64,000 bases of DNA, from contig NMRA01000046.1 of assembly GCA_002633005.1 (NCBI GenBank), positions 1,060,596 through 1,124,595 of the forward strand, given 5' to 3'. Shown one piece after another: positions 12,082 through 62,110 of this stretch (the stretch's first letter is position 1; every line of letters begins with the position of its first letter). Source of the DNA: Phoronis australis (Eukaryota; Animalia; Phoronida). The notes beneath the pieces are model-generated. The model made no database searches and had not been told where the DNA came from. It saw nothing but the letters and a program-made list of their open reading frames with translations. Position numbers and translations under genes: made by a program.

Positions 12082-12293
12082 ATGTGTCCATTGGTGATGG
12101 ATCTTTGTCAGGGTCATCACGCAGACAGGCTAGTGAGCTCATCAAGCAATTACCCAGTCATCAACCTGAGATGGCACTGCTGTGTCGTGGACGTAGTTAT
12201 CAGGACAAGTCTTCAACCAGTGCGTCTACATTACAGCGTAACAGGTCCACGCAAAGAAAGAGAACAAAGAAGCAAAAAACTGAATTTGATGAG
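12082..12293 (+). CDS. TMC N-terminus A, internal exon (DVSIGDG...ELIKQLPSHQ...KTEFDE)
   Basis: Acceptor cctttacag|, donor gag|gtttgt, open frame, phase 1 to 0. LIKQLPSH resembles the TMC7 N-terminal FLQELPSY motif. Confidence 0.7.
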
Positions 12294-30200: not shown

Positions 30201-33200
30201 AAATCGGACAAATGTTGGATGTTGTAAAATAGCTATGATGTTGACTATGCTATCTTTGCTTGTGTGTTTAGAAGATCTAGCAAATTGGTCCTGAGTATGT
30301 TGACTTATTTTGAGTAGTTACCAGCATGAAATATGACATTGTTTATTATAAATGTCTTTCCCACCATGAGAAGGTGTCTAAAGGCTTGATTGAACGTGAG
30401 ATAAGGCCATGGTACTCTGCACTATTAACCTTGGGTCAAGCTAGTCAAGCCTAAAACTGTTTAACTGGCACCCTCTTCAGTAAAAGCACTCTACAAAAAT
30501 GGAACATTCATGAGGTCTTATGTTGAATTTGGGACAGTTTCCATGTTTGCTTCAATACCACAGCGTTGAGTTTAAGTTCACAAGCATACAACTATTTTTA
30601 TGATGGTTTTAAAGCTAAGATCAGATGCTCAACCTTTAATAAATTGCTTGCCCTGTAGGGTTGGATGGAGAGAACTATTTTGTTCTACGGCTTCTACTTC
30701 AACAAGACTTACTACAGCGAGGTTGAACAAGGTGAAACTGTCTTCAATATGCCATTGGCATTTCTACTGTGTACGGGAGCTTACTTCTTTGTCAGCCTCG
30801 TCATAATGCTAAATAGGTAACAAGTGTTGTGAATTATGCAAGCTGTTGTCAGTTTGTGTATTTGGGGAATAGCTCCATTTAAAGCTGGCTTCATATGTTG
30901 CCTCATTCTTAGTTTGTTGCATTTCAATGTAGGAATAAACAATTGACATGTGGATTTAATCCAGTGTTTCTGTGTAAATTGCTAGATCAACTCTTGTGGT
31001 TGAAGTCCAGTGACTAACGCAATCAACTGAAGATTACGTTTGAATGCAATAACGTCTTGAATGAACTAGTTATTTTGTTGTAATCCAAATAATTGTTCTA
31101 GAGTACATTTATCAACAGTGCACTATCTTAGTCTAGAACTTACAGCTAGTTTTACAGTACCTTGAGACGAAACAAGTTTTAATAGTACTTCTGAATAAGA
31201 CGTTTTTGTTGCATTACAGTCAGTTCAATTAGTGACATGTCTGGATGAACAGTTTGCCTGCTACTTTAATTTAAAGCTTATTTTTCTGATATCAGCATGG
31301 CCAAAGGTTTGACTGAGAGTATCACGAGTACAAGTGACCGCAGTGTTAACTTCTGTAACAAAGTGTTTTGTGGCTGGGATTATGCACTGAGTGATTTGGC
31401 TATGGCCAAGCTGAAGAGAAAGAACTTACGGATTGAACTTGAGGTAAAACTATTATAGGAGCTGGCATTGTATTAGCAATGTGTTATGGTAAACTGTATG
31501 TTAGAAAAATAAAGTGAGAACACAGAAGTGCAGTATGTCGTAGAATGTGTTGAGGTGACTATAATCGAAGACACATTAAATTAAGAAAGAACTTTGAGTT
31601 AGAAATGAGATGTATCACAATTACCCACTTTCAGTTTTTTGAAGTTCCATGTACGGACTCAATCCTGAGTTGATTTTTTCATTAACTTTTGATTAAATTT
31701 GATTGATTTTCTGTGTTGTTGTCATTTTGCCAACATGCTATGATTTTTTCAGAGTGACCTGGCTGAAGAGAAGAGGAAAGAAGAGAGAAAAAATCGCACA
31801 GCCAGTACCAAGGCTCAGCTTTATGCCATTCGCATAGCGATCAATCTGTTGGTGATGGCAGTTCTAGGGGGGTCCTTCTACTTGATTGTTTTTGTGACAC
31901 AACAACAAAGTGTGGTTAGTAGTTCATAGTTGAAGATGCCCTCACCATATTTACAATGAGCACGTATACCTTCACCACATTTACAATGAGCACGTCTACC
32001 TTCTTCACGTTTACAATTAGCACGTCTACCTTCTTCACATTTACAATGAGCACGTATGCTTTCACCATTTTTTTGTTTCCCAGACCCATATAAAACTTAA
32101 AATACATACTCCAGGCATGCATTGGAGAAATTGCTAATTTTTATTTGCATGTGTAGGTCCAACCACGAAAGAGTGCCTGTGGAGCCATTCGGGAAACAGG
32201 GTGCAAGAACACCCTTGTGGGTTCTTTCAGACTTGAATTGCGTGCCACAGGGTACTTCCATAGCAAATATGGGCAAGATGTCAGTAATTTACAAATTTTG
32301 TGTGCGTAAAAATGATAAGACATTTTAAGTTGTTCATTTGTCAGTGAAATTATTCCTGAACTTTTCCTTGTTTTGCTAGACCTGGATAAACTACTAACAA
32401 AATGAATCCTAGGAAAACCAAAAGTTCAGTTCCTTGACCAATTAAAACCCGTAACCACCAAACTTTACTCAGAAATTTGATTGGCACTGTATTCTCTTAC
32501 TTAAGGAAATGGCAACCACCATTCTTTGCTCAAATCCTTTCAAGAAGTACTCATAGACTAGAACTATCTAGAGTTGCTGTGGAAGTCCATCTGTCTGTCC
32601 AGTTTCCAGCGTCCGCTGCTCTGTCTCCAAAACCCTGTGACTTATGTTCATGAAATTTTGTGTTCCTATCATGGATGGGACGGCATGAGCGAACTTTTGG
32701 ACGTATCTGAGTACCGATGTGCCTCCTAGTGGCAATTTTAGTTTTTTACGTTGTTAGATATGTTAGGTTTTCCCGCTAGTGGGGGCAGTGTTGAGTTTGA
32801 TCGGGGAGTTCTAGTTGGTTGGCAAGGGTATTCAGAGAATTCAGATCATGTCTGCTCACCATCCAAGAAGGACGCGCAACCGCTTTCTCCTCAGACAGCG
32901 CTCAGAACATCTGTTGAGATAATACGTATTAAGACAATACTGGAAGCATATGGACAATGGTGAAGCTAAACATTACAAAGGAGAACCACGGTGTTATTAT
33001 TACATGCACAGCGTCCAAAGAAAGACTAAAGTACCTCTCTGCTAACTTGTCTATTACACATCTCGTAGCTGCCGGACCGACAGAACTGAAATTTGCAATC
33101 TTGGAACCACTTCTCACTCACCTACCTGAACGACGGATGAGACAGCCTTGATTGTTGAGAACCATAACGTCAGTTGTTTTACTGATCATGTGTATTTTCG

Positions 33201-36200
33201 TTTATATTACCGTAACATATAAATTGGTGGCTTGTCCGGGATCTGTACTGTAGAAAAATTTAGACAGTGGGAATAGTTATGAGTTGAGTTAGTTCAGACT
33301 GTTAAGGTTAAGAGTTTAGTACAGACTGTTAGAGTCATGAGTTTAATTCATTCTGTTGGTAGTTTGAGTTCAGTCTGTTAGTGGTGACCCTCTTTTGCCA
33401 AGTGCAAGTGTGTGACGTATTCAATAGAAAGTGTATTCAGCATTGTCTTACTGAATTGGGTGGTATTGAAGTCGAATTGTGACGGGTGGATTTGAGATAT
33501 TATGCGCTACCTAGTGGCCATTCTTTCTGTTTTTGAGTATGTTTTTTGGCATCCGCCCCTCTATCAACCAAACCATTCTAAGAATAATTTTGAAAATTTG
33601 CATAAATGTTTTCAGTATGAAGAGGAAGATTGATGGTGATTACTTCAACTAATGTGGTGCCTCCTAGTGGTAGTTTTGTTTTGTTTTGTTTTGCACCCAT
33701 AGCTGTATCTCCTAAACCTACTGCAGAATCTAGCAGATTTAGTAAGTGTATTTATATGAAGTTATCAGATGACGACTTTCAGATTAGATGGATCCGACGA
33801 ACGCTGTGCTCCCTAGTGGCAATTTCATTTTTTTCTGTTTCCTTTGTTTCTCTGGAGTTCCGTGACAGATTTTTGTGAAATTAGTTAAGTAGCTCTCTAT
33901 TAATGAAACAATGGTATTTTGCCCGATTTCGGATGGATTCGACGTAATTTTCGTGGGCGCATTTCAACACTCCGCGTTGTCTTGTAGGGAATTTTTTGAA
34001 TGAGGGTAAATTCTCCCCTGTGGTCACTAAGCTGCCTCTGGTCATCACCAATTCCACACTTCCCTCAACACAGACCCTGGTCGTCACCCCTCATTGCCTA
34101 AAGTAGCCAGAACTATTATGTTTCAGCTGATTCCAAAGGAGTGCCTTATACTTTGCTTAGATTACACCAACCATCAATTCTGTGTCTTTCCTTAGAATTG
34201 TACTAGCCTAAGTTGTAGGGTGTCGAGTAAATGAATGCTATGAATTACTTTCTGTTCTCAATATGATATGATCACCCCAAAACTTACAATAAACTGAACC
34301 AGATTGTGTTCTCCACAGCAAAGTATGAGTATGAACAAGGTAGAGTCCCAGGTCAAGTGTAGGCCTTTTCTTCACTTGATGAAACCTTATGATTCAGGTG
34401 GTATGTTTGAGTTGAAGTGACTCTAATCTTTGAGCTTTTTTATCATTTGAAGGGAATTATTGGATCAGGAGTGGGGAATTTTTTGAATTTCAAATGTTTT
34501 CCAAAGGGAATGAAGGTTCAACATGCACGTATTGAGGTCTCATGCACGTATTGAGGTCTCATGCACGTATTGAGGTCTCATGCACGTATTGAGGTCTCAT
34601 GCACGTATTGAGGTCTCATGCATGTATTGAGGTCTGTAGGGGCTTGAGTGTCAAAACATTTGATGGATTGAATTTGCAAACATGACTTTAGAAAATTTTA
34701 TGAATTTCATAACTTTGTGCTTTGTAGAGGATACTGAATTAACAAACTAATTATTCAATTGTAATGTGCATCTGCTGTGGTTATTTCTATAGGAATACCA
34801 ATAGATTATTATTTGCTTGCTGTTTCTTTCAGTTGCTTAAAGATGTATCGGATGAATTCCTCACCTTGCTTGTACAGTTCTTACCATCTTTGACCATCAC
34901 AGTTCTCTACTTTATTCTGCCTCTTGGATTTGAATTTTTGATCCAATATGAACAGTACAGCCCTGAATTTGAGATTGAGATTTCGCTCTTCAGGTAGGAT
35001 GTTGTTATTGCTTGCTGTTGGCATTGATAATTAAGGTTTACGTAGAACAAAAGTAAACTCTGCAACTGAACTGATTTTGAACTGTTTCGTCTATGGAGGT
35101 CTTAACTCTGTCACTAGGTGGCGATAGTATTCCGTCCATGAGTCTGTTCACATAGAACTGCCAAGTAGCATATAATGGAAATGGATGACATTTCAAGAGT
35201 GCACTAAAAATAGTTTAGTAAAGATACAGTTTATGAGAAGTTGCTAAAGCAGAACTGGTTGCTTGACATTGTTTTTGATGTCCGATCTTACAAGATAGTG
35301 TCATTCTTTTTTCATTTGGAAATACCGTATCTGGTTCCATGTGATTTGGAGATAATCTGACTGGATCTAAGTAAAATATGCATTAGCATTGGATTATGGC
35401 GTAAATGGGTCTGCACTTTCTAGCCCAAAAAATTACCCACCTTTACGTACATTTGGCTGGAATTGTGTTGTTTCACAAGCCATTCTTATAATTCTTTTGT
35501 GAGTTTCTGTGTCCAATTCTTTTGTGTCGAGATATTTGAATTATAACTCTCTTATCAATGTTTCTGTTTTGTAACTAAGTGATTATGTGTAGTAATCACC
35601 TCACCTCTTAGGCCCATGCTCTGCTTTTGTTCCAGGATTGTGTTTGTGCGCCTTGCATCACTCGCTGTTCTCATAATAACAGCCTATGTGGAGATTGGCG
35701 GTGAAAAGTGTGGTGATGCACAAGAACAAAAAACGTGTGGCAACTGTCCGTCAGTGAACACCGGGGTGAGTGTAAGGCACAGTTTGCCACTATGCTTGGT
35801 TGTTTTGTAAACCTACCTAGACAATGGCCTAGGAAAGCAAGATGGATTTGTTTTTCTTTTTAATATAGTCACAAAATATGAAATTTGAGCTTTTTAAATC
35901 ATGCTGTGAACATTCCCATTAAACAAGATGACGTCACAACCCCACTGATCAGGGAAAACCGTGGGGTTTGGCCGATTGAACTAGATCGTATTTATCCACC
36001 TTGGCTGCGTTGCACTCGGCTCACGATCAAAGGGATCCCTCCTAGCTGTTCTCTTCATCAAGTCACAAGCGAGGATAATTGGCTTCGCTCATGCGGATAC
36101 GATCAGCTGATTACAATCTAGCCTAAATGACTGTACTTTTTAGGAAGAGCGTTTTAGGTTGTTTTGAGTGTAATTTGAAAAGAGGAGAGAAAAAAACGTT

Positions 36201-39200
36201 GGTACAACTTTGAATTTTTAAAATCGGTCCAGAATAAGAGATTTAGCAACACAGCAACACTCAAGATTACTTTCATTCGGCACGCGCGAATACAAAAATA
36301 TAGGACCCGTTATTTAGATTTTGGAACACATGCTTTGCAATATTCAAAATACGTTTATTATAGCTCTTCCAAGATGTAAAACGATGTTGTTCAATTTCAT
36401 TGTGGTCATTCATTGCTGGCTGACTATAGGTACCACTGTGTTAGACCCAGAAATTTCACACAGCCCGGGTAGCTCACCTCTTCCCCAACATGTAGATCGA
36501 GCTTAGGACCATTAATCTTTTACTCCACGGCAGAGGTAACGACCGTCGGCCTGTGCACACAAAATGTGTGAGTTAACTGGCACTTACCTTGCACGTTGCA
36601 GCCGTTTAAGTGAAATACAATCTAATAAATGCCATTTTCTTGCATAATCTTCCGCCTTTTGTAACAAAAGTCTGTCGTCAATGACCTGCAGGTGCTCTCA
36701 CTCTCATACGCAGACGAACTTCAAAACGAACGTCACGTGGAAACGACATGTGTGTTCATCCAGAGATTTTTCTTGTGTTCTGGGGTATGATGTAGTGCAG
36801 ATTTGGACTTAATCGCAATTAATCTGGACTCCACATTAACTTAAAAAAATGTAAAACATGAGGATTTCAAGTAATTTGTTGTGTCGAAACTGTATTTTTA
36901 TTCAAGAATTCAAGTTTTCCTGTCGACGATCGCGATTCAGTGACATATCAGTTGGCAAGTTTTCGCCCTGGGATTTCAGCACAATTTTTGAAAAATGATC
37001 GTAATTTAACTACGGAGTTTGATAGCAATGCACCACAATTTTGTAGAAAGACTGTCATAGGCTACAAATACGTCACAGAGCATAAATTTAATAAATCCTA
37101 GCTTCCGATTTTACCCATTTCGGAAACCGGGTTTCTGAACTGCCTTAGGCTACAATAAACGTCCACTCCCCGTGAAATAAATTTTTGTAAGCGCCCGGTA
37201 TACAGCTTTCCACCAAGGCTAGGTGATGCTACGACATATGCTTTGTTGCTTGTACGGATTGTTGCCAATTTTTTATTGTTTCCATAGCATAATGATGGCG
37301 GAAATGAAAACTTTGCATATTTGAATTTTAATGTTTGCATAATCCAGAAAATCAGAGGTCGGTAAACAAAGTTTTTTAAAACACTTTCGGTGAAAAACTA
37401 GCAGAAGATGCCCACTCTTTCAAAATTGCCATGAAGGTATTAACTATTCCATGCAGCGTTATTTAACTGGTCTTGGTTAACTATCATTTTATGGCCTGGT
37501 CATCCATTCAGCCAAAAGTAGTTCCATAGGTGGCTTATCAGCCAATTATTCATGCATGATGACTCACAATAGAAGCCTGAAAAGATTGAAAGTGGATAAA
37601 TGCAGTGTTCCTACAGTTTCTTGTGGTAGTGGATGTGTTCACGACATGATAAAGTTACATTTCTGAAACTCTGCATCTTGGTTTATCCTTTAGAAGGTGA
37701 ACAGTTGTCCATTAAATGTAATTTTACTCTGACTTTCTCCTAGAGTTACCGTAATCGTTCGGATTAACGCCCTGGGCGGTTAAATTGGCGAATCCAAAAA
37801 ATCGGGGGAGTGCGGTTAACCGAGCAGTGGGCGGTTAAATCGAAAATCCACCTAAAGTAGGGGATGGGCGGTTAACCGAACATGGGCGCTTATTACGACA
37901 GACAACCTCCCTGGGTGGTTAATCTTACCTGGTGATCTAAATCCCGACACGACAATCATACTCGGAACGCGTAGCCCTTTTCAAAGAGCTTTATCGTCAC
38001 GTCGCCAAATGATTGTGAAAACATCATAACAGCGCATGATCCCAACAAAGGTTCTCTTGCCCTCAGATTAGTCATTCACTATTAAATTTACAAAATTGCT
38101 GAGTAATAGTCCTGTGCCGTCCTGCGGTGCGCAGACGACCAGTGACCTCGCAGCCTCCACTAGAATTAAAACTGTTTCAAGATGTGACCCTGCTTAAGTG
38201 CGCGCGTGCAAGCTTCACGTGTTGCAGAGGTCAGACATCAAATTTATGGTTATAGCCTTGTACTATATGTAGCTGTCAAGTTCCGACTCAGAGAGCAGTT
38301 TTAAAATTGGTTGTACTAAAAGTTTGAAAAACTTAACTCTGTTGTTTTTTGTGTTTGGGATGTTATAGTCGACACTCCGTGACTCAATGACATTTTCTGC
38401 GTATGGTTCTGCGGCTAGCTGTCTTATCTCGACAGCCCGGCATTGCTCTCTTGCCGTTGCGCCAAGCATGCTATGCAAAGAAGTGAGACAAGGATCGGGG
38501 GTGGTCGAGCCAGTCGTCGATCAAGAATAAAATTTCAAGCAACTGCATAAATATGTTAAAAAATGTCAGAAAACAGTAATGTTTCAATTCATTAATCTAA
38601 ACGATCACCTTACCAAACTTCGTGGTGGAAAAACATTTATTTTTCATGGAAGATGTCCAGATTATCCTATTTATAACACTTGTAATATCGCACTGCGGCA
38701 CTGTTTGGTCCCGCTGTTATCAGTCGGCTGACAATCGTGACTTGGAAATGCCGTCAAGTAATATAACGGCCTTTTTCAATATGCATCTCGTTTTTTATGG
38801 CCAAAGATAGTGGCGGTATTCAGCACGCACGTAGGGCCTACGTGTGAGTCACCTGTCAATCACATGTTGGTGTCAAGGTAACATGCACTCCAAAGTGTGG
38901 GAACTTGCGCACGTGCACCACTACAAATCAGTCACACATAGCAACAGTCCGAAGTAACAAAAACGGGCGTGACTATGTGCTTTTAAGCTGTTGTTACGAA
39001 AGACCCAGTTCTTTACGATATTCCTCCGTTGCCAATGTTCCCCAAAACTGCGATGTCAAGTCTATTCCCATATTTCCTGGCTCGATGCTCCCTAAGCCCA
39101 TCCCTGTAACTAGCTGTGTGAATCTCCTACCCACTATAGTCAAGCAGACTACGTCGTAGATATTTCAGACTCGAATGGTAACAATTTTTGTTCAGGCTGA

Positions 39201-42200
39201 AAATGGCCAATGTATAAACAAAGTTATTCTGGATGGCTAAAAAGGGGATATAGAAACGATTTTTCACAGTCACGTTTACGTGCAGGCTGACGCAAGAATA
39301 GTAAAGAACAGCCAGCGACATTAGTTAAATCTGCTAACCAGTTTGACTGCGATGCAATAAGCGAAAAACAAAATTTGACTAGCCGTTTTTTTATTACTTC
39401 AAGATCATACACAAACATACATTATTGTCAACCTTTGAATTCAGAAATCGACAGGCAGCAACGAAATCGGTAACCCAGTAAGGCACTTGTACTGTCCCTT
39501 CGGTCGCCCCACATCCTCTATAACCCGGCAGTTATATTCATCAAAATATTGAGAATTTTACATCTTTCCGTGAGTTGTGATATTTGTTCAAAATACGAGA
39601 GCTTCCCACCTTAATAGAATTTGGAGGGTTGGCAAAACCATTGTCACATTTCTCTGGCCTGATTTTTTCGAATATATGTGTTATCTAGTGCACTGCAGAC
39701 AGAAGCTCAGCGCGGCAGACAAAGTCGCTGAAAGCGGAGGTTTTGACGCCGGCGGCATTCTTAAACTTTGCAAACAAGGGAAGAAAATAAAGTGACAAAA
39801 AGGTTCAAGTATTATATTTTGAAGTGAGTTCATGACCCAAGACAACTCGTTACTTGTATTGTAATTCAGATTGCTAAACCACCGTCTCGGAGTCCCGGAG
39901 TCGCTGCACTCATTGTGATCGTCGATCTTTTTCTAAAAGTCGGGGAATCGCGCGTTTCCTTAGCACTAGGCGCTAAATCTTTATTCTTTAAAAGTCGGGG
40001 ATGGGCGCTTAACCGAGAGGTGGGCGCTTAGCTGGAAATCTTCAAAAATCGCAGGGGGCGCTTAACCGAGCAGTGGGCGGTTAAATCGAAAATCCACTTA
40101 AAGTCGGGGATAGGCGGTTAACTGAGCATGGGCGTTAACCCGAACGATTACGGTATGTTAGGGTACATCTCCCATAGTTATGTTGGGGGACATCTCCCCT
40201 AGTTATGTTGGGGGACATCTCCCATAGTTATGTTGGGNCATCTCCCGTTGTCATGCCAGAGTACATCTGCCATGTTAGAGTGTTTTCTTGCGAAGCTTAG
40301 TGTTGGTTGTCCAGTTGTCCTTTTGATATGACTTCTCAAACATTTTTGAAACCTAACACAAGTAAGATATCTTTCAACCTTTTAGTGGTTCTATGTGTGT
40401 ATTTTATGCAGGGCGTTGGATACCCTTCGTTTTCACTATGGCACATTGGTCTTTATTTATGCATCTGAAAAAGACATTCCAAGGCCATTTGCGATGCCAC
40501 TAGTGTGTGTGTTGCCATGATCCATCTCAGCACTTCATTGTTGTAGTGCCTCTGAACATGAAGTTACTGCAGCATTCATCATTTTGATTTGCAGTCATGC
40601 AATGAGTTGTAGTGCAGACATTAAGAAACAGGGCAAGGTGGAAAATATTTGTGGTTGTGCGTCATCATTTTTTTGATTGTCACATTCAGCTCTGACTGAT
40701 GACTTGAAATGTGTGACATTTGGAGAATTTGGTCAGTCGTACTGTGCATGTTCTTTACGCTGTGAAATAGAACCTCTTGGGGGATGTGTCTGGTCAAGGC
40801 TTTTTGTTGCTCTAGGTTTTGATTGAATGAAATATGAAGGAAATTTTGCTGTAATCAAACGCTTCCTTAAAGCCATGACATATTTTCTGGTGTAAAAAAC
40901 TTTCTTCTTAGGCGTCATGTTTGAATAGATTTTTTTTCCAATAAAAGTCAAGGAATTCCCTTGATGGACAAACTACTTGGGCAGCTGAGGTGAACCCACT
41001 GCGACGTTCAAATTTGATTAGCCTGTTCACAATCAGTAATGAAAAATCAGTTCTTCCCAAAGCTAGAAATGATGTCTATACACCCACATTTGGTTGCTTA
41101 GTGCTGCATAATGTTGTCATATTGTTTAGTTGGTCGATTGTGTGCTTCATATCTCAAAAACACCTTTCCTGATTTTTATGAAATTTGTCACACGGATATG
41201 TGATGCTACTAGGGTGGCACATGTCACTGTACAATCTGCCCTGCTAGCAGAGGTCAGTTTTTGAACAGATTCAAACACAACAACACTCTTAGTGGCCATT
41301 TTAGTTTCGACAAGCAGATAGTTAAGTACTTTTGAGTGGAAGAACATTTACAGATGATATCTACAGAACTAATTAAAGAATTTCTAAAAAACTTATCACA
41401 TTGAAATTCGACAGCGATCTGTTACCACGGGATGATTTTTAGATGGATTCGGCTACCTCAGCAGGGGACTGTTTCAGTATTTTTTGGGAAGAGTTTGCGG
41501 AAAATACCTAGAGAACCATATGACATGCTGCTACTATGTGATGGCAATGTGCCAGCACCTGTCAATTTTTGGGCGGATGTGTCTGCGGCATTCCGGAGTA
41601 GCCATTGGAGCTTTACTTTTTAACGCAAATAGCAATTCCAGATGATATTCAGTGTACTGTTTGATGGATTTCAGTGAGACAGATCTGTATGACGGCATTG
41701 CCTCAGTGAATTTGTGGAGTCATTTTTTATTCTGCCTCACCAGGAGGCACTGATTTTCAAACTTCAATGAAACTTTATACAATGGCTTGTGGTGGCAATC
41801 AGACGGCACCAGTTGATTCAGCTTCTCCAGCACCCCTTAGTGGTCATGTTGTCTGATTTTGTAGCTGTCAGCTTGATATTTCAAACGTACCCTGGCAGAT
41901 TCTTTTAAAATTATAGTATCGTGTTGTGGCAGAATGTGATGTATGTTGTCATTAAAATTACTAAATTTTGAATGTTTCAGTGCTGGGAGACCTACATATT
42001 TAGAATGTTTCAGTGCTGGGAGACCTACATATTTTGAATGTTTCAGTGCTGGGAGACCTACATATTTTGAATGTCTCAGTGCTGGGAGACCTACAAATTT
42101 TGAATGTTTCAGTGCTGGGAGACCTACATTGGCCAGCAAATCTACAAGTTGGTTATACTGGACTTTCTGGTTCACGTTGGTGTCACCATTGTTGAGTTAA

Positions 42201-45200
42201 TTCGCAAGTAAGTTTGACTCATGCACGATATAATAAACTAACTAAGCCACTGTCACCTAGGTACTTAACTATGTTATGTTGATTTCAAACAATCCTCTTT
42301 GTCCTCTGCTAATCCACTGGCATCTCATTTGAGTGAGTGATAAAAATAGGATTCAACTTAAAGCTTTTCACTGTGTCACGGAGTGAATGTTATAGTTCAT
42401 GGTGGGTGGTCTTTCCTTGCAGTTGTCACCTATCTCACCGAAAGTGTAGGCCACCTCTACAGATTTAGCAAACTTTTTAAGGAATTTTCAACTTTGATCC
42501 AAATTTATGAGTCTTGACGAGGGTTACAGAGCATTGTTTTGTGAAAGTCATTCTTAATGGCTATTAATAGGGCAAAGTCATTCTTAATGGCTATTAATAG
42601 GGCAAAGTCATTCTTAATGGCTATTAATAGGGCAAAGTCATTCTTAACGGCTATTAATAGGGCAAAGTCATTCTTAACGGCTATTAATAGGGCAAAGTCA
42701 TTCTTAATGGTTATTAATAGGGCAAAGTCATTCTTAATGGCTATTAATAGGGCAAAGTTGATTTTTCAGTATGACAAATTATTAGCAGGAGTATTAAAAA
42801 CCATAAAACATGAATGTTTAACCATTTATACATGTTGAGTAGTAGCATAAATGCTAAATATGTTGGTGTTACGATGTCCCTTCAAAAAATAAATTTTAGG
42901 GCAGTGTTGAGGACTCAAGTTAATATATGTATTGTTCTTAAAAGGATGTACATTACGACTCTAGTGAACATGTATTATTTTTAAAGCATGTACTTTACGT
43001 GGTTATGGTATAGCTAATAAGTTAAAGGGTTTTTTTGCTGGATGCTGATTTCTCTCTCACTAATATTTTCAGAATTGTTTGAAAAATAATGAGATGTTTA
43101 AGTCGAAACATGTTTTGATGTGTCCAACATACGTCCCCAGAAACAAAAGAAGGTCATTTAATAGGCCAGAACAGTGTGGAGTGTGCTATATGCAGTGTAA
43201 TGTCGCATGAAGAGAGAAGGGAAGAAATGTCTTTACTCGAACACTATTTTATTGCATACTGACTTACTACTGTGCAACAACATGTTTTTGCAATACATAA
43301 GACCAGATGATTATGAGTTGCATTTCATAGAACTGTGTGGCAAGAGTTATATAAGAAACCATTCTAATTAATTGTGCCATATAAGGTATGTAGTTCCAGT
43401 ACAAATCACAATTATATACTATTACATACAGCATCGTAGTAAGAGGCCATCTAACAAGGCCAGAGAAGAGTGAGAGAGAGAGCTATATACGGCATCTTAG
43501 AGGCCATGTAACAAGGCCAGAGAAGAGTGTGTGAGAGAGAGCTATATACAGCATCAAAATAAGACACCATGTACCAAGCAAGTTCAGACAAGAGTATGAG
43601 AGTGTGCTATATACAGCAACATAGTAAAAGGCCGTCTAACAAGGCCAGAACTGTGCGAGAGTGAGCTGTATACAGCATCGTAGTAAGAGGTCATCTGACA
43701 AGGACAGAGAAGAGATAGTGAGAGTGACCTATATACACCATCATAGTAAGAGGCCAAAGGCTAGAACAGTGGAGAGTGAGCTATGTACACCATCATAGTA
43801 AGAGGCCAAAGGCTAGAACAGTGTGAGAGTGAGCTATGTACAGCATCATAGTAAGAGGGCCAAGGCCAGAACAGTGAGAGAGCTTTATACAGCATCAAAG
43901 TAAGAGGCCATATACCAAGGCAAGACAAGAGTATGAGAGCGTGGTATATACAGCATCGTAGTAAAAGGCCATGTAACAAGGCCAGAACTGTGCGAGAGTG
44001 AGCTGTATACAGCATCGCAGTAAAAGGTCATCTGACAAGGCCAGAGAAGAGAAAGAGTGAGCTATATACACCATCATAATAAGAGGCCAAAGGCCAGAAC
44101 AGTGTGAGAGTGAGCTGTGTACAGCATGGTAGTAAGAGGCCAAAGGCCAGAATAGTGTGAGAGAGCTACATACGGCATCATAATAAGAGGCCAAAGGACA
44201 GAACAGTGAGAGAGAGCTACATACGACATCATATTAACAGGCCATCTAACAAGGCCAGAACAGTGAGAAAGAGAGAGCTATGTGTGATGCCTCATAATGT
44301 TTTTAAGGATGATGTTGGACACATTAAAACTTGCCAAGACTTAAACATCTCGTTATTTTTCTAAACATTATAAGTTATTTGTCTTAAATAGGACCAACTG
44401 TTTAAAAGCGTGTCAACCATTTTAGCAAAACTTAGTTGAGGCTGGCAGAAATATCCTTGGCTGAGTTTTATGTATTTCAATTTGAATGGTCAAAACCACG
44501 ACAATTCAATATAGACTTTTGCCATTGTCTGTAAAAGCAGATGGGAATAGTAATATTGGAAAATGTCTCTTGTTTTAAAAATGTATTTCACATTAAGGGT
44601 ATTTATTCTAATTTATTATAGAATTGTCTGTCTCAAAATCTTTGCTAAGGACAACCCTAAATCGGAATTCAACATGCCTACGTGTATTGTGGAGCTCACT
44701 TTTCTACAAACCCTTTGCTGGCATGTATTCAGTTTATCACAATTTTGTAGTTTGGTGGAACTTTGAATGACTAACATCAGTTGTATCTTGAATGTCTAAC
44801 AACAGTTGCGTTGTAATCTTTGTTGCTTCCAGCTTCGTTTATTTGCTCTTATGGTTTCTTGAGGGAAACGAAAAGTGTTAAGTATTCAAAAAATCTTGTG
44901 CCAAACAAAATTGGTGTGTCAAAGTATCCCATTTTCATACAGATTGCTTCTGTGTGACAGGCTGCACTAAAATTGCATGACGATGAAATAGCATGTTAGC
45001 ACAATGGTTCAGATATCCAGTGTGTATATCTGAGAAGACATATACCTGAGCAGTTGTGTTAGGCGAGTCTCAGTACTGCTTCTGTTTCCCTCGTGAAACA
45101 GTTCAGCATATCCAGCAGTTACTTGTTGTGTTGATTACGTGCTGTTGTTCTGCTCATTTTCAGATTGGTTGTTCATCGTTGGAACCATGTCAAGTTGTTT

Positions 45201-48200
45201 AACTGGATTGGGTTTGCTGAATTTTTACTTCCAGTCAATGTTCTTGATATTGTCTACACTCAAACTTTATGCTGGTAATTTTTAAATTTTAAATTGGAAA
45301 TGCTTTTGTGCACTGTTTTTATGCAAAGGGCAATATCTTGTCCATAATTAGTTAGATTTTTTTACTCTCATTTGAGTTACATAATATGTTAGGTCAACAC
45401 GCACATTGTTTGCTGTGCCTCACTGTATTTAATTTTGTCTAAGTCAGAGGCCACTGTAGGCCATTCCTTTCTGCATTTGCTGAGTTATTATTGTTTAGTG
45501 AGGACATGTGCTGCAAAACATCCATGATCATCAGATTGGGAATTAAAGTCGAAGGCAACCTTTTTTCATATCATTTTTAGCAACAATAAGGTTCGTTGAT
45601 TATCCCAGACATATTTTTCACTTATTTACTGATTTTCGTAATTTAATTAATAACTCGTCGTCTACTCCGGAAGTAACGTTTTGGGAGGCAAGAATTGCGT
45701 GCCAATTTCTTTTCATATAGTCTGACTGTGAGAGCAGTCGAGTCACTCATTGTTCTACCTCGGTTGTGATAAGTTCAGTCGTCGTTTGCTTTTGCTTACG
45801 AGTCAGTCAACGTGCCACGCTGTTGCTGCATACTGGGGTGTACTCATTATCGTCTCGGGTACAGAGGAAGAGCTGTCCCACTTGCCCGAGTGTCCCGCGA
45901 CACACTCCCACTGGAGGGTGATCTGAGCACCAAACTGCTTACATCCCGCCATATGACTTCCTCGCCACACACCTGGCACCTTCCAAATAGCTCCAATACA
46001 AGTCCACAATAAACTTATCAAACTTAGGCTCACCGATCTGTTCATTGGATGACTAACTGCCCTCTCTGGGTGTCGAACTGGGCCTGTATTCACTCCCACT
46101 ACTCAACATCGCTGCAGGGCTGCTTACAGGCTCTGGGCTAGAGACAACAGCACAGGGCGAATCACTGCTAGTTCCCGGAATTGCAGGCAATGGGGTACGT
46201 TCGGAGGCACGGGTGACAGTAGATGAAGTGCCTCCAGTCACTGTATATAGTGGCCACAGCTCGCGAGGCTTCTCGCTTCAAAAACGCACTTCTCGGGGTT
46301 GGCGACGGGGCACTGCCGGGAATCAACAGCGACGTCATGGTACCCTTCTTCAGGCGTTGTTTCGCAGGGAGCTTCATCAATTCAGCATACATATCTGTCA
46401 TAACCTGACGGCAGAAAATGCTTGCCACATACTCGGTAACCCTCCATTGCTTTGTACGTTGTGTGGACGGCTAGCGCTGCGTTCTTCACATGAACCAGCT
46501 AGCCAAGTACGGCGAAGTGTGTCATCCTTCCGAATGCGACGCAAGATACCCAAAGCGCGTGTGAGATGATAATGAGTACATCCCGGCACACAGCAACAGC
46601 GTGGCATGTTGACTGACTTGTAAACAAAAGCAAACGACGACCGAACTTATTACAAACGAGGTAGAACAATGACTGACTCGACAGCTCTCACAGTCGGCCT
46701 ATGATGAAAAGAAATTGACGCGAAACTCTTGCCTCCCAAAACGTCACTTCCGGAGTAGATGATGAAAAATTAATCAAATTACGAAAAGCTGTAATTAAGT
46801 GAAAAATATGTCTGGGATAATCAACGAACCGTATTTTTGCTAAAAGTGGCATGAAAAAAGGTTGCCTTAGCCTTTAATCAATAAGTGTATGTTGTTTTGT
46901 GTTATGGCAGGATAAGTAATGTTGCAACTTTAGAGTTGTAAATAAATTGCTTGCACTCTATCATTTTTGAAAATATAGCTCTCAGATATTTGAATAAGTG
47001 AATTTAAAGACTCACCAAAAGTGCAACTTCTTTTTAAACACACCCCTTTGCTTGCCTCCTGATTTTACAAACATAATTCAGGTATAAGATGTATTTTTAT
47101 GCTTATGCACTGGTTGATGATGTTACAATCATCTGTTTCACTGTGTATATGACATGAGTGGTTTTTTACTTCTTATAATATGAATGCTTCATATTTATAA
47201 ATAGTTTTTTTTATATTGCAAGTCTTTATCATTTCAGGGTGGGTGCCTTTTACAGTCCTCTAATTCCCGTAATTACTCTGCTGAAGGTGTTCCTGATATT
47301 TTATTTAAAAAAGGTTTGTTTAGCCGCACATATCACCTATATGTGTAGCTGCTCGTATATTTGGAATTAGGCACATACATACATATGTTATAGTTGAGTA
47401 ACACCGAGAAGCAAGTCTCTGAAATATTGTGTGATTGAAGCTTCATATATCCATTATTAATTCGTAAAAAGTGACATGCATTAAATTTAACACAACTGTT
47501 TTGATGAAAAGTATTTAGAAATAACTGTGAATATTCGAAACATTCACCTTTTTGCTTAGCACTTGAGTATAAATATTTTTCTTTGAAATGTGCTCAATTT
47601 CAGATATAAGTGCATGAGTCTAAATGTGTGCAAATACGATAATTTAGAAGGTAATGTTTTACTGGTCATTGAGTTCCAAGTATGGCTCCAGGCATACGTC
47701 AGAGTAGTCTGGTGCCCACCTCCACTAGCACCTGCTTGGCGACCTCGTCGGGTTTACTAAAAATCTTTGAAAGTCATGTGACATTGAAAAATTGTAATTT
47801 ATGAGGTCAGAAGTTGAAAAGTTAAGCCCTGATTTTTAATAGAGTGCAATAACTTTTTTCATGGTATGCTGCCTTGTCATATTCTTGGGAAACGTTATTC
47901 ATAATGTAGTAGTTCTGTTTATTTTGTAAACAGTAAATATAGCTGAACTAAGAGTGTAAAAGATATCCTGCTTACAAAACAGTGAACCTTGAACATATCA
48001 AGCACCTAATCAGAGTTGTGTCTGTTTTAGTGGTCTCTGTTGATCAATCAGAAACCATCCAAGCGCCCCTACCGAGCCTCCAGCAGTTATCTCTTCTTCA
48101 CGGTGATTCTTATACTGGCATTTGCTGGCAGTGCCCTCCCTGTTGGTTGGGCTGTTGGTAGAATAAAGCCATCTCAGTCGTGTGGACCATTCCGAATCTA

Positions 48201-51200
48201 CAGCGAGGACAACTTCTTCATGTTTCTCACCTTGACTAACACAGTCTTGTCTTGGCCTGATGTACCTCAGGCAATCTTTACTACAATTGGCTCAGCTGCT
48301 GTCTATATACCATTGACCGTCATTCTGCTGTAAGTAGTCTATTAGTGTTTTTGCTGAAAAGAAATGTTAGCAAGTTTGTGAAATGTTTAAAATTTCAGTA
48401 CACCTAGTTTTATAATTTCACAGGCCTTTCTTCAGGGTGTCCCAAAAATGTTGTCCCATTTCCAGTGAGGATAACTGTGTTGTTTATGCACTTAATATGG
48501 CAACAACATTACTGGTGTTGTTCCATAAAGAGATAGTCAAACACGATTTGAGACTTTAAACCAAAATGCACCTATTATCTATTAACTTGTGAAGAATTTG
48601 CATTGCTTTGAAATAATTAACAAGTTTCCTGTATCATTGCATGGTATGAGTTGTTTGTTTGCAATTTTCATGCATACAGAGCAGTGTTGTCATCTTCAGT
48701 TTGCTCCCGTTCGAATTTGTTTCAAATGACCTTGAAAATTCTAGCTGTAGGTCAGAGAGAATGTAGACGTAGCCTTAGATCACATGTTCAGAGAAAAGTT
48801 GATGTAGGCTTAGATCTCAGGTTCACACCCTTTTTATGTGCCCTCAAAAAATCTGTGGTGGCATGTTGTCAGCGTGCCGTCTGGTGTCTGTCATTACCTT
48901 TGCATGTCCGTGGAGTTTTTCAAAAACTGCTTGATGGATCATCATGAAATTTGGCACTAAGTTATATAACAGGGTTTGCCAACACCAGTCAGGTGTTTGA
49001 TGGATTTGATCACCATGGCTCACCCTGTTGACATTTTTGTATTTTGGCAAGAAATTTTCCTTATCCGTCAATTTTTCGGGGAACCACATGATGAATTTTG
49101 CCGGAACTTGTTGTAGAGGTAAATCATGGCATAACATAGAGATATACAGCATGGATCGGGTGTTGACAGCAGTCGATTTTCACACAGATTTTACTGCAAT
49201 AGCACCTTTGTTGGCTAGTTTAGTATTTGGCTGGATTTTTCTTGTTCTTTGATTATTGTCAAAGTGGCTTGCCAGGTTTCAAGTTTATTTTCGAGGGGGG
49301 AATTGGACTACTATAGCCTCCCTGTTTAGATTTTGACAAGATAATGCTTGTCCTTTGATTATTGTCAAGTCTGTCTCACAGGTTTTGATGAAACTTGACA
49401 AGAATTTATTACTGGGACATTTTAGCAGCAGTAGATTATCGGACAAATCGGCCCACTGCAGTGCCTCTGTAGCTTCACGGTAGCTCCACTGTAGCTCCAC
49501 TGTAGCTCCACTGTAGCTCCTCTGTAGCTCCTCTGTAGCTCCTCTGTAGCTCCTCTGTAGCTCCTCTCTAATTCCTGTTTAACTCTACTGTAGCTCCTCT
49601 GTAGATCCACTGTAGCTCCTCTGTAGCTCCACTGTAGCTCCACTGTAGCTCCTCTGTAGCTCCTCTGTAGCTCCTCTGTAGCTCCTCTGTAGCTCCTCTG
49701 TAGCTCCTGTGTAGCTCCTGTGTAGCTCCACTGTAGCTCCTCTGTGGCTCCTCTGTGGCTCCTCTGTGGCTCCTGTGTAGCTCCTCTGTAGCTCCACTGT
49801 AGCTCCTCTGTAGCTCCACTGTAGCTCTGCTGTAGCTCCACTGTAGCTCCTCTGTAACTCCTCTGTATCTCCTCTCTAACTCCTCTCTAACTCCTCTGTA
49901 TCTCCTCTCTAACTCCACTGTAGCTCCTCTGTATCTCCTCTGTATCTCCTCTGTAGCTCCTCTGTAGCTCCTCTGTTCCTCTGTACCCCATTTTAAATGT
50001 TGAAAAGCTATTGATTGTCATTTGTAATTGTCAAAATGAATTGATATTTTTATGGACCTTGACATAGTTGTGTTGTACATTTCCAGTTACGGGCAAATTA
50101 GTCTATTACCTAATAATAAATTATGTACACTGCTAGAAGCATACTGTTTGTGGTGCAGTACACATTTTAACGCCTTGCATAGCTTTGTGAGTAATACTTA
50201 CTGAATTTTTAAAATATTTGCCTTACATGTGCTGCATTCAGACATGGTCTAAAAGCAAAAAAAATGAAATTTGAGGAGAAGCTCTTGCAAACAGAACTAC
50301 AGTAAAAGTTCTGTTCAGACAATATGGCAGACAGTTGAAACTTTTATTTGTCAACATTGATAAGCTCTAAGAAAGTTTGATGCTGTTGTTAGCACAGTTT
50401 GTGTAGATTTGTTGAGTTTGAGCTGTCATATGTGCAACATATTGAGTCTTTAAAAAGACTAAGCTATGCAACATTTTGAGACAGTTATCACTACTACTCT
50501 TTACGAAAAGTAGGTACAAGAGACAGTCTGAACATTAACTATTTTTGTTTACCATTTATCTCCATCCAAGAATAATGCCCTATGCACTGGTTACATAATG
50601 CCATATGCAGTGGTTACATAATGCTATATTTACAGGTTACATAATGCCACATGCACTGGTTACATAATGCTATTTGCAGTGATTACATAATGTTATATGC
50701 TGTGGTTACATATTGCTTTATGCACTGGTTACATAATGCTATATTTACTGGTTACATAATGTCATATGCACTGGTTACATAATGCTATATTTACTGGTTA
50801 CCTAATGCCATATGCACTGGTTACATAATGCCATATTTATTGGTTACATGATGCCATATGCACTGGTTACATAATGCCATATGCAGTGGTTACATATTGT
50901 CATATTTACTGGTTACTTAATGTCATAAGCACTGGTTACATAATGCCATATGCACTGGTTACATAATGCCATATGCAGTGGTTACATAATGCTATATTTA
51001 CTGGTTACATAATGTCATAGGCAGTGGTTACATAATGCCATATTTACTGGTTACATAATGCCATATGCACTGGTTACATAATGCCATGTGCAGTGGTTAC
51101 ATAATGCTATATTTACTAGTTACATAATGCCATATGCACTGGTTACATAATGCCATATGCACTGGTTACATAATGCTATATACCGTGGTTACATAACATT

Positions 51201-51506
51201 AGCTCCATTGATAACTTTATCTGTATTTAAATGATCAATTCCAACCAAAAATATGACGATATTGTGCAAGCTTTAAATGGCATCTGCAACAGATTATCAT
51301 GCTCCGCATCGTTGATGGGAATGTTATAGTAACAGCCTGATTCTTTTATTTGTTACAGGTTGTTAATCTTTTATTACTCAGCAGTGGCATCGGGTCATAA
51401 GAAGATGATCAAGTTGTTAGAATCACAACTTGGATTGGAGGGCAAAGACAAACAGTTCTTGTTATCCAGAGTGAACCATGCGCTGAAGAAGAAAGGGCGA
51501 GTGTAG
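12082..51506 (+). CDS. TMC7: TMC7/TMC5-like transmembrane channel-like protein (multi-exon; about 907 aa for the isoform starting at 22512 and using exon 45164-45274)
   Basis: Shared exons: 24224-24296, 25160-25241, 26057-26224, 29977-30173, 30659-30816, 31296-31443, 31753-31914, 34833-34993, 35636-35765, 42113-42207, 45164-45274 (or 44622-44720), 47238-47313, 48031-48329, 51359-51506 (TAG at 51504-51506). Boundaries are AG/GT except the GC donor of 44622-44720, and phases are compatible. Motifs LEIWGGSFKEIEGHFGTG, GWMERTILFYGFY, NKVFCGWDY, CWETYIGQQIYKL, PYRAS, PSQSCGPF and LEGKDKQFL are TMC-family hallmarks. The TMC7 subfamily call rests on recalled similarity. Confidence 0.93.
12568..12657 (+). 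pseudogene. THAP-domain C-terminal relic (transposon-derived)
   Basis: RV*GKH..NDMKVPAKHALKKDGIPAVFP, similar to the THAP at 46330-46607. Confidence 0.5.
13727..15437. mobile_element. Non-autonomous Tc1/mariner-pogo-type element, copy 1 (contains N gap 14130-14497)
   Basis: TA|CCGTAATCGTTCGGG ... CCCGAACGATTACGG|TA; subterminal TTAA(C/G)CGCCC repeats. Confidence 0.88.
15500..15594 (+). CDS. TMC N-terminus A, exon ADFTSETEREAWERLQDVKNLTTSLDQKRKYR
   Basis: Acceptor cttttaaag|, donor cag|gttcat, phase 0 to 2, fitting exons 12082-12293 and 24224. It resembles the TMC pre-TM1 helix (e.g. LRNYALNISEKRRLR). Confidence 0.78.
19180..19240 (-). mobile_element. Degenerate tRNA-derived SINE head
   Basis: Minus strand TAGCCGAATAGTTAGAAC...GGTTTGATTCCCGG resembles Pol III A/B boxes; no complete cloverleaf. 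Confidence 0.35.
22512..23227 (+). CDS. TMC N-terminus B: large first coding exon (238 aa, His/Gln/Asn-rich, likely disordered)
   Basis: Acceptor ttccag| at 22496, in-frame TAA at 22506 upstream of ATG 22512, long open frame, donor tacag|gtataa in phase 2 matching exon 24224. Confidence 0.85.
23628..23858. mobile_element. Second copy (opposite orientation) of the 7156 MITE family
   Basis: TIR GGGCCCATTCCAA / TTGGATTGGGCCC, AAG TSD; internal sequence is the reverse complement of 7156-7424. Confidence 0.8.
24224..24296 (+). CDS. TMC first shared exon (RSNLMKAQVTGGGDELDALKYKSTK)
   Basis: aatag|G...AAG|gtgagg; phase 2 to 0. Confidence 0.85.
25160..25241 (+). CDS. TMC exon (AYRNLKVKTNEFLSHLEIWGGSFKEIEG)
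   Basis: tgtag|...GAAG|gtaagc; conserved LELW...IEG motif. Confidence 0.92.
26057..26224 (+). CDS. TMC exon, TM1 (GHFGTGVLQFFRFVK...)
   Basis: ttgcag|...GCAG|gtatct; conserved FGTG..F.F motif. Confidence 0.93.
26768..28448. repeat. ~640-bp direct duplication (26768-27401 and 27807-28448) around a single N at 27803
   Basis: Near-identical copies with scattered SNPs. Confidence 0.85.
29579..29815. repeat. 28-bp minisatellite x~8
   Basis: aatactgctgtttactgccccatacaac. Confidence 0.92.
29977..30173 (+). CDS. TMC exon, extracellular loop ending DFLQGT
   Basis: tttcag|...ACA|gtaagt; phase 1 to 0. Confidence 0.9.
30659..30816 (+). CDS. TMC exon (GWMERTILFYGFY...NMPLAF, TM2)
   Basis: ctgtag|...AATAG|gtaaca. 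Confidence 0.93.
31296..31443 (+). CDS. TMC exon (NFCNKVFCGWDY)
   Basis: atcag|...GAG|gtaaaa. Confidence 0.93.
31753..31914 (+). CDS. TMC exon (DLAEEKRK...IRIAINLLV, TM3)
   Basis: ttttcag|...GTG|gttagt. Confidence 0.92.
31944..32068. repeat. 30-bp minisatellite x4
   Basis: ccttcttcacatttacaatgagcacgtcta variants. Confidence 0.85.
34522..34635. repeat. 19-bp tandem repeat x6
   Basis: catgcacgtattgaggtct. Confidence 0.92.
34833..34993 (+). CDS. TMC exon (FLPSLTIT...YEQYSPEFEI, TM4)
   Basis: ctttcag|...CAG|gtagga. Confidence 0.93.
35636..35765 (+). CDS. TMC exon (RIVFVRLASL, TM5, plus Cys loop)
   Basis: ttccag|...GGG|gtgagt. Confidence 0.92.
37749..40153. mobile_element. Non-autonomous Tc1/mariner-pogo-type element, copy 2 (2.4 kb, inverted relative to copy 1)
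   Basis: Same TIRs, TA TSD; high identity to the reverse complement of 13727-15437. Confidence 0.9.
41963..42128. repeat. 33-bp tandem repeat x5 spanning an intron/exon boundary
   Basis: attttgaatgtttcag|tgctgggagacctaca repeated. Confidence 0.95.
42113..42207 (+). CDS. TMC signature exon CWETYIGQQIYKLVILDFLVHVGVTIVELIRK (TM6)
   Basis: CWET TMC signature; donor CAA|gtaagt; the acceptor is the last unit of a 33-bp tandem repeat. Confidence 0.93.
42544..42757. repeat. 30-bp minisatellite x7
   Basis: aaagtcattcttaatggctattaatagggc. Confidence 0.93.
43075..44368. mobile_element. TIR-bounded element enclosing a ~55-62-bp minisatellite (43420-44283)
   Basis: 43075-43130 is the approximate reverse complement of 44310-44368; internal repeats of cagcatcatagtaagaggcc...ggccagaacagtgtgagagtgagctat. 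Confidence 0.6.
44622..44720 (+). CDS. Alternative (mutually exclusive) TM7 exon A: IVCLKIFAKDNPKSEFNMPTCIVELTFLQTLCW
   Basis: Acceptor tattatag|, 99 nt, phase 2/2, no stops. It ends QTLC-TG exactly like exon B; the donor is TG|gcatgt (GC). Confidence 0.65.
45164..45274 (+). CDS. Canonical TM7 exon B: LVVHRWNHVKLFNWIGFAEFLLPVNVLDIVYTQTLCW
   Basis: ttttcag|...CTG|gtaatt, 111 nt, phase 2/2; matches the TMC EF..P.NVL.IVY.QT.CW motif. Confidence 0.92.
45547..46873. mobile_element. Kolobok-like element with ~310-bp TIRs and decayed THAP domain
   Basis: TTAA TSD both sides, AG...CT termini. Minus strand reads MPRCCCVPGC...DDTLRRTWL...YRVCGKHF...RLKKG across frameshifts. Confidence 0.82.
47238..47313 (+). 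CDS. TMC exon (VGAFYSPLIP...FYLKK, TM8)
   Basis: tttcag|...AAG|gtttgt. Confidence 0.93.
48031..48329 (+). CDS. TMC exon (PYRASSS, TM9, PSQSCGPF)
   Basis: ttttag|...CT|gtaagt; overlaps ORF 48040-48333. Confidence 0.94.
49465..49985. repeat. 11-bp satellite
   Basis: tgtagctcctc / tgtagctccac. Confidence 0.93.
50573..51198. repeat. 23-bp minisatellite x~27
   Basis: ggttacataatgccatatgcact. Confidence 0.93.
51359..51506 (+). CDS. TMC terminal coding exon (...LESQLGLEGKDKQFLLSRVNHALKKKGRV*)
   Basis: ttacag| acceptor; conserved EGKDK.FL; TAG stop. Confidence 0.93.
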
Positions 51507-52284
51507 CTCTGGAACAGGTCTGGTACATGTAGCTTTATAATTGCTTGGTCACCGTATTGTGTGACATGGACGACCACTTAACTCTAGGAATGGTGAGCAT
51601 CTAATGAATTAACATTGATCAGTTTTTGTTGTAGTTTATAGGTCTTAAACCAAGCAGTATTGTATGAGCACAGGCAGCGTACCATTGGGGGCTGGGGGGT
51701 AGTCCCCCACTGTTTTCAGTGCTGCACCGCCCATTGTCTATAGGCGATGCACCACAGGGGGGCTGGGGGGGATAAAGCCCCTCACTTACCATTGCTGGGC
51801 CGCCCATGATGAGCAGCCTGTTGCTAGTGTATTGTCTTAAGTTACATTTGCCCAGAGTAATATTGGAGGCTCTGCTGAAAGCAGTGAACGTTGATTAGCT
51901 TTTCTTGTAGTTTGCAGTTCTTGAAACCAAGCAACATTGTATGAACACCTTGTTAGTTGTGCAAATTCTTGCAAGTTACATTTGCAGAGAGTAATACTTG
52001 GGTTCTGCTGAAAGGGTAGTTAATAATACCTGAAGTGTAGTATTGAGATGAAGAAACTTTATTTTCTGTTTTGACCATTGTTATTTGTCGATTGCTGGTC
52101 TCAAATGTTTGTATTTAACATATGGTTGAATTATTTAAATGTTTATTGAATGTTTCATATCACAAGCCACTAACAACATGTTTGTAACGGGTTATACTTC
52201 CTTTGAATGTTCTTTGTGACTTTAAAAATGGTTGTGACAGATTTTGTAATCATTCTACTAAATGTAAAATTACAAAGAAAGATG

Positions 52285-61099: not shown

Positions 61100-62110
61100 A
61101 TGTATTATGTTAAATCTATAATTGCGAAAAAAGCCTTCCATGTAGCCTTGCACTTAGAATTCGACGCATTTGTTCAGAAGAGTCTGCCTTTAATAACCGT
61201 TTAAAAGAACTCAAACATTACCTACTTCAACGTCATTTCCCTTACATTTTATACTCAAGCAGTTTGACAAAGTACGCTCAATCACAAGAAAATCTTTAAG
61301 AACTAAAACGAAAGATAATACTAATAATAGAATACCTTTCATAATCATGTTCGATCCATGTTTAAACGGAATTAGCCACCTCTTCAGAAAACACGTTTCC
61401 ACTATGCATAGTTCTCCTCAAATGAAACACTTATTTCCTCGTCCACCTATAATTTCTTGGAGAAAATGAAAAAGCCTAAAAATTCTATAGTTAGAGCAAA
61501 TATGGACAATAAAAACCAAACTGACAAACCTATTGACAACAGACAATGTAACAAATTTAGATACAAAATGTGTAACTTTATCAACGATAATTCTTTCTTC
61601 CAGTCTTCTCAAACCAATGAACACTTCGAAATAAAACAATATTCTGACTGCACCACCAACAATATCATTTACCTAATAACATGCAGAAAATGTTCCATTC
61701 AATATGTAGGACAAACTCAACATAATCTACTAACTCGGTTTCGCAACCATAGATTTAACAAAAAACATAAAAACATTTCTGATAGGCCTGCTATAGATAA
61801 TCATTTCGATACCAAAAACTTTAATCTTCAAGATCTTTCTGTACAAATAATAGAAAAACTCCAATACCCTAGTACCCCTCACAGGCTCAAAAGAGAACCA
61901 TTTTGGATAGATAAGCTTAACACACTTGAACCTAATGGATTAAACATAACGAGTTCTTAAATTATACCGTTTACTTTTTTGCACAGCAATCTATCATGTT
62001 CATTACGCTAAATATCAGACGTCATTTGTCATATCGTGTTTGATTTTACTTTTTTTCTGTTTCTGTTGACAAGGGATGTTATTTTATCTGAAAATTTCAG
62101 TTGATTCGTT
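61100..62110 (+). mobile_element. 5'-truncated Penelope-like retroelement (RT thumb relic plus GIY-YIG endonuclease ORF 61457-61960)
   Basis: SLALRIRRICS thumb motif; NIIYLITCRKCSIQYVGQT...RFRNH...REPFWIDKLNTLEPNGLN. Confidence 0.9.

Follow-up and report, generated by a model that had tools for sequence, protein, structure and literature searches.

The window analysed here is a 64,000-nucleotide stretch of the phoronid Phoronis australis (assembly GCA_002633005.1, contig NMRA01000046.1, positions 1,060,596 to 1,124,595 of the forward strand; all coordinates below count from its first letter). It contains a gene of the TMC channel family in which one exon, encoding the loop between transmembrane helices 6 and 7 (TM6 and TM7) and most of TM7, is present in two neighbouring copies, which we call A and B.

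A TMC gene with a duplicated exon

Homologs were gathered by an HMMER search and an alignment query, and tblastn with homologs placed the gene on the plus strand between about 12.1 kb and 51.5 kb. It contains the CWET motif and the PF07810 TMC domain, and its best match among 240 proteins is the Lingula TMC7-like isoform X2, with 53% identity over the matched exons. A quick tree of 29 rows, built on the C-terminal part with few outgroups and a midpoint root, joined the gene to Lingula (SH-aLRT 95) within a clade that includes Platynereis Tmc487a (SH-aLRT 99). By its sequence the host gene is thus classed as a spiralian Tmc487/TMC7-like channel, closest to that of Lingula; Tmc487 is described as one of three eumetazoan TMC clades (bioRxiv 10.64898/2026.07.31.741574). 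Word-indexed protein searches with single exons returned no matches, and exon B alone found no sequence match in the PDB.

The exon pair is real: A and B are neighbouring homologous exons that share the same flanking exons (Table 1), and re-reading the sequence reproduced the coordinates, lengths, phases and translations given for them in an earlier note on this DNA. Both are preceded by an AG acceptor, begin with the base A and end in TG, and the downstream exon begins with G at 47238. Both are free of stops, and their homology, which the note had held, exceeds what chance would give: the local alignment scores 59, equalled in none of 20,000 shuffles, and the next best score among the 2,920 stop-free stretches of the window is 37. 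The 200 bases flanking either side of A and B do not align between the copies. The PF07810 profile is divided among the upstream exon (positions 1-30), B (39-69) and the downstream exon (70-94), each segment scoring above the curated cut-off.

Table 1. Positions of the exon pair and associated features of the host gene within the window
Feature	Position	Strand	Remarks
Constitutive upstream exon (CWET, TM6)	42113..42207	+	Phase 2 end, GT donor; PF07810 1-30, E 8e-9
Exon A (99 nt, phase 2-2), the divergent copy	44622..44720	+	Probable minor alternative; encodes a short TM6-TM7 loop and the larger part of TM7
GC donor of exon A (gcatgt), non-canonical	44721..44726	+	Use inferred from frame and zero depth in next X3 bin
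Exon B (111 nt, phase 2-2), canonical and the major form	45164..45274	+	45274>47238 joint; PF07810 39-69
Constitutive downstream exon (end of TM7, TM8)	47238..47313	+	RNA joints, PF07810 70-94, frame
Following coding exon (TM9 region)	48031..48329	+	Part of it used as query in homolog searches
Last coding exon including stop codon	51359..51507	+	
Host Tmc487/TMC7-like gene, approximate span	12113..51507	+	Homolog tblastn, exon inspection; 5' exons less certain

Reading frames and transcripts

The donor of the upstream exon reads AA/gtaagt, and that of exon A reads TG/gcatgt, the sole GC donor among the 16 listed for the gene and one that the earlier note had overlooked. Each exon alone, in the same phases, gives an open full-length frame, A requiring its GC donor: the B form (340 amino acids) and the A form spliced at the GC donor (336 amino acids) both reach the natural stop with no interruption across the final seven coding exons. 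A form that lacks A and B alike would also be in frame, at 303 amino acids. The GT at 44725 was considered as a donor for A and rejected, as it shifts the frame to a stop at residue 232 of 337 and the read set X3, described below, shows no depth beyond 44719. When A is followed by B, the junction TG/A forms a TGA stop at residue 162 with three exon junctions downstream of it. Messages with a premature stop ahead of exon junctions are expected to undergo nonsense-mediated decay. As the A-B join reads TGA, decay of the message is a likelier safeguard against double inclusion than the flip of membrane topology that the earlier note had offered as the reason for exclusion; translation of A plus B meets the TGA first, and a flipped protein with both helices would not be made in full. 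Steric exclusion was likewise discarded as the basis of exclusivity, because the intron between A and B, at 443 nt, is longer than such exclusion allows. An inverted-repeat search of the three introns returned transposon arms and pairs of chance length, with no convincing RNA pairing; no docking or selector pairing can be claimed from these repeats without relatives for comparison.

A 33-nt unit that includes the splice acceptor of the CWET exon together with its first codons occurs five times at 41965-42129, providing exon starts at 41981, 42014, 42047, 42080 and 42113; the upstream copies meet an in-frame TGA, and only the last (42113) gives an open frame.

Four runs were aligned over positions 44300-47420: a contig set (X1), presumably RNA, together with raw reads in three sets (X2, X3 and X4) from one study, about 18-19% of each of which was read. 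An X1 contig has no mismatches over exon B, which indicates that the RNA comes from the same or a very close species. The joint 45274>47238, which connects B to the downstream exon, was found in all four runs (8, 4 and 6 reads in X2, X3 and X4; contig depth 34.7 in X1). Sense depth in the bin holding A was 0.3 in X2, 3.77 in X3 and 0 in both X4 and X1. Converted to depth over the exon itself, these values become 0.32, 4.04 and 0 for X2, X3 and X4, and the conversion was checked by its return of the X1 depth of 34.7 in all four exon bins. In X3 the depth of A, about 4, thus compares with 6-10 for B. Both 105-nt bins adjoining A stand at zero in X3 although the mean read length is 145 nt; hence the reads are clipped at or inside the edges of A, as spliced reads would be. 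The upstream intron has zero depth in all three of its bins in all runs. Further, 10, 11 and 7 reads cross the downstream acceptor in X2, X3 and X4, and subtraction of the B joints leaves 2, 7 and 1, so that the excess falls in X3, the run that covers A (Fisher p 0.02). This excess fits a splice from A to the downstream exon that takes the place of the B joint, at roughly 30-40% in X3. The splicing of A is likely, judged from exon-bounded depth in one of the three read sets, and that A takes the place of B in mRNA we hold to be quite probable. The difference in A use among samples (p 0.01-0.11) is suggestive only.

Placement in the pore and the status of exon A

For structural placement we used an AlphaFold model of the Lingula homolog, the closest one (pLDDT 80, pTM 0.79), whose best fold matches are TMC-1 and TMC-2 (Foldseek E 3e-24). 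The exon corresponds to model residues 617-653, that is, the end of helix H585-621, helix 626-631 and 16 of the 21 residues of helix H638-658, which are taken by alignment as TM6, a short cytoplasmic helix and TM7, respectively. TM4-TM8 constitute the putative TMC pore, and residues H404 and H731 of C. elegans TMC-1 partly define its narrowest constriction (PMC9605866). The view that the two exons encode a pore-lining segment agrees with the Lingula model and the alignments, in which they cover most of the predicted pore helix. A different outcome awaited the conserved acidic position (Asp in B, Glu in A; one of these two in 102 of 108 homolog cores), which the earlier note had equated with mouse D569. 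Counting along the alignment to 7usw places C. elegans TMC-1 H731 in this column, with D683 and D695 falling on Asp as a check of the register. The mouse residues that set the register (E567, F568, D569, G572, N573, V574, L575, A576, F579, N580 and M583; bioRxiv 10.1101/2024.03.05.583611) make the column that of mouse A576, and the D569 column is occupied by Leu in B and Asn in A; register and alignment together rule out the proposed equivalence. At the columns reported as pore-cavity contacts in docking (bioRxiv 10.1101/2024.03.05.583611), B and A differ as follows: 1) Leu to Asn at 569, Val to Thr at 572 and Asn to Cys at 573; 2) Asp to Glu at 576, Tyr to Phe at 579 and Thr to Leu at 580. 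These residue roles are carried over by alignment alone, C. elegans TMC-1 and TMC-2 standing at 23% identity.

The mouse mutants D569N and W554L, on the intracellular side of TM7, are reported to lower channel expression with conductance unchanged (PMC9564823), and because they act on expression, an effect of A on trafficking is as plausible as one on permeation. Human TMC3-8 are reported to give mechanically gated cation currents in HEK293T cells, the mutants described there lying in TM6 and not in TM7 (bioRxiv 10.64898/2026.08.18.745354, a preprint). One might suppose that form A does not retune the pore but is a regulated non-conducting or retained subunit, which within the TMC dimer would serve as an off-switch or dominant-negative partner. 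The larger change between A and B does sit in the cytoplasmic loop, and A carries at the D569 column the Asn which, like W554L, lowers expression in mouse (PMC9564823); yet 11 of the 108 homolog cores likewise have Asn at that column, where B has Leu, and we regard this possibility as rather improbable.

Several signs point to selection on A through most of its history, as the earlier note had suspected. In the core alignment of 18 codons, the bases common to A and B number 8, 12 and 5 at codon positions 1, 2 and 3, the pattern of a duplicate that arose long ago and has been under purifying selection. Neutral decay starting from B was simulated 100,000 times, at five divergence levels and with no indels. 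In 45,422 of the simulated copies 29 or fewer of 56 bases were still identical (27 in A), and not one of these preserved the frame, the splice sites and the profile score of A; at 0.3 substitutions per site 1.3% of copies pass. This speaks against long neutral decay but not against a recent loss of function. A retains the frame, phase and acceptor and the invariant Q and W, and its total segment length of 72 is rare (3 of 159 segments). Exon B has peculiarities of its own: the Leu at the mouse D569 column (45225-45227) occurs in 1 of 108 homolog cores and the Val at the mouse G572 column in none.

We consider it fairly probable that A is an old tandem duplicate, with B the default exon and A a likely regulated minor alternative giving a second channel with a relined inner pore. 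A and B would descend from duplication of the exon for the TM6-TM7 loop and TM7 in a TMC7-like gene; B would be spliced by default, the weak GC donor would keep A mostly skipped, some tissue or state might raise its use, and messages including both would be removed by nonsense-mediated decay. Form A is predicted to carry Glu for Asp at the H731 constriction column, Asn for Leu at D569 and Cys for Asn at N573, together with Phe for Tyr at F579 and Leu for Thr at N580, and to replace the short cytoplasmic helix before TM7 with a more polar linker shorter by four residues. Such changes in pore columns and linker would tune permeation, gating or trafficking. That A yields a working, differently tuned channel under regulation is conceivable, at somewhat less than even chances. 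With similar reserve we offer the fuller proposal, in which one TMC gene yields two channels: regulated splicing would exchange the lining of the pore at its narrowest point and remodel the cytoplasmic loop ahead of TM7, with the GC donor and the junction stop as safeguards, and the exon pair would be the first of its kind among TMC genes.

A number of observations weigh against this proposal. On the side of the protein, exon A alone has no Pfam match, and its 19-residue core scores 21.8 where the median of 108 distinct homolog cores is 59 and B reaches 55.3; only 2 of the 108 score lower. It has Met at a column where none of the 108 has Met and Phe where 107 of them have Tyr and none Phe, and it lacks a Gly present in 144 of 159 segments. 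By sequence, A is far more divergent than normal TMC7 proteins. On the side of the transcripts, the splice switch claimed in the earlier note stands directly for B alone, spliced in four of four runs, and indirectly for A in place of B in one sample: of the junctions it named, 45274>47238 was recovered, and neither 42207>44622 nor 44720>47238 is among the 15 joints listed, 14 further ones ranking behind those derived from the transposon. No A>B joint occurs among the same 15. The roughly four X3 reads on A may represent two fragments, and when they are halved the sample difference weakens to p 0.11. Some of the residual acceptor reads could stem from transcripts that skip A and B alike, an in-frame outcome, and X2 and X3 show a sense depth of 1-2 within the A-B intron at 44825-45034. 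Finally, none of 24 annotated homolog clusters, both Lingula isoforms included, holds an isoform pair differing by an alternative copy of the exon. The low depth at 44825-45034 may itself be a retained intron after the weak donor of A, or a cryptic exon.

Part of this would be accounted for if A were a formerly functional duplicate under relaxed selection, leaking into messages through a donor decayed from GT to GC and giving a poorly folded or neutral product. Its standing below 106 of 108 homolog cores, the loss of the near-invariant Tyr and Gly, the GC donor itself, the absence of A from the X1 contigs and X4 with near-zero depth in X2, and the simulated copies that pass after recent loss all suit such decay. 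However, nearly all the core changes are conservative, Phe being native at that position in mouse TMC1 (F579); the frame, phase, acceptor and invariant Q and W are kept; and a mere leak would hardly be expected to reach the 30-40% of A use apparent in X3. We therefore think relaxed selection unlikely, though it is the strongest of the competing accounts. The reads on A might also come from elsewhere, be it precursor RNA that has not been spliced, a transcript with an alternative end or a second, near-identical copy, with A never joined into a full mRNA. The lack of an A junction among the joints listed and the sense reads in the nearby intron would suit this origin, and a near-identical copy at another genomic locus is conceivable, the analysis having been confined to the window. 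The zero depth of both bins flanking A in X3, the empty upstream intron bins in all runs and the matching excess at the downstream acceptor speak against it, and we consider it very improbable. Outside the transposon, 4 of the 33 intron cells (11 bins in three read sets) are non-zero, all of them in the A-B intron.

Comparison with other channels and further features of the window

The homolog comparison covered the annotations of 24 clusters with 170 listed proteins, 153 of which contain the segment; five large clusters were listed in part. The Mizuhopecten cluster holds two segment types, which most likely come from neighbouring paralogs, a reading suggested by one 1621-residue model that contains both. 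Scanning metagenomes for related loci produced 595 pattern matches, none of which was confirmed. The Tmc487/TMC7-like channels of Lingula anatina (XP_013380167.1) and Platynereis (Tmc487a, UYL70871.1) and human TMC4, 7 and 8 belong to the same gene type as the gene in the window; among their annotated isoforms none is set apart by a second version of this exon. The C. elegans TMC-1 and TMC-2 structures (7usw, 7usx, 7usy and 8tkp) share the fold; however, they belong to the Tmc123 subfamily, at 23% identity.

Duplicated exons that are spliced in a mutually exclusive way form a well-established class, which is enriched in ion channels and has arisen independently in different lineages (PMC9741552). 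The tandem duplicated exons described there in Drosophila slowpoke and cockroach para resemble the present pair in being adjacent homologous internal exons of equal phase, and they swap a homologous region, as A and B probably do; those examples lie in voltage-gated channel families, whereas the TMC pair adds a GC donor on one copy and a stop at the junction on double inclusion. The term TMC is absent from the main text and supplement of PMC9741552 and from the supplement of PMC8373072, a text search made with no positive control, and other tables could list more. The TMC1 splice variants in a review (PMC12490864), namely exon 9 skipping, an alternative 3' site of exon 14 and alternative start exons, are likewise cases of TMC alternative splicing, yet none of those described there swaps homologous duplicated exons. 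No such pair appeared in the literature on duplicated or alternative exons of TMC or anoctamin/TMEM16 genes, a survey mostly without subscription papers and preprint supplements. Within the literature surveyed this is apparently the first duplicated exon pair, probably spliced as either A or B, in a TMC gene, in one lineage so far, and probably a new, lineage-restricted case of mutually exclusive duplicated exons in ion channels, with a putative difference in function.

What is known of TMC pores comes mainly from point mutants in mouse and from two nematode structures. For the TMC4/7/8 branch, cation currents with mechanical gating have been reported only recently (bioRxiv 10.64898/2026.08.18.745354, preprint). 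If the proposed switch is correct, it would be a natural TM7-swap experiment in the family: isoforms that differ only in TM7 and the preceding loop would directly test the role of TM7 in selectivity, conductance, gating and trafficking. Tuning by duplicated exons, known in voltage-gated channels, would then extend to the TMC/TMEM16/OSCA fold.

The gene and its surroundings show several further features. A Met-initiated open frame of 239 codons (22512-23227) ends at a GT donor whose phase matches the exon at 15500-15594 (compare 12113-12293). Judged from its sequence it is probably an alternative first exon giving a second N-terminus; its matches, to long isoforms of bivalve homologs, are weak (E 0.04-0.16). 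The intron after B contains a non-coding transposon-like element (45542-46878) with terminal inverted repeats of about 315 nt, 88-89% alike, both strands of which are covered at a depth in the hundreds by reads from other copies, mostly 90-95% alike. At 43073-44369, inverted arms of 58 nt (83%) surround a tandem array of 15 copies of a 59-nt unit, ending about 250 nt before A, possibly a second inserted element. Two open frames, at 58820-59628 and 61412-61960, resemble part of a DDE transposase and the end of a GIY-YIG-type retroelement, respectively.

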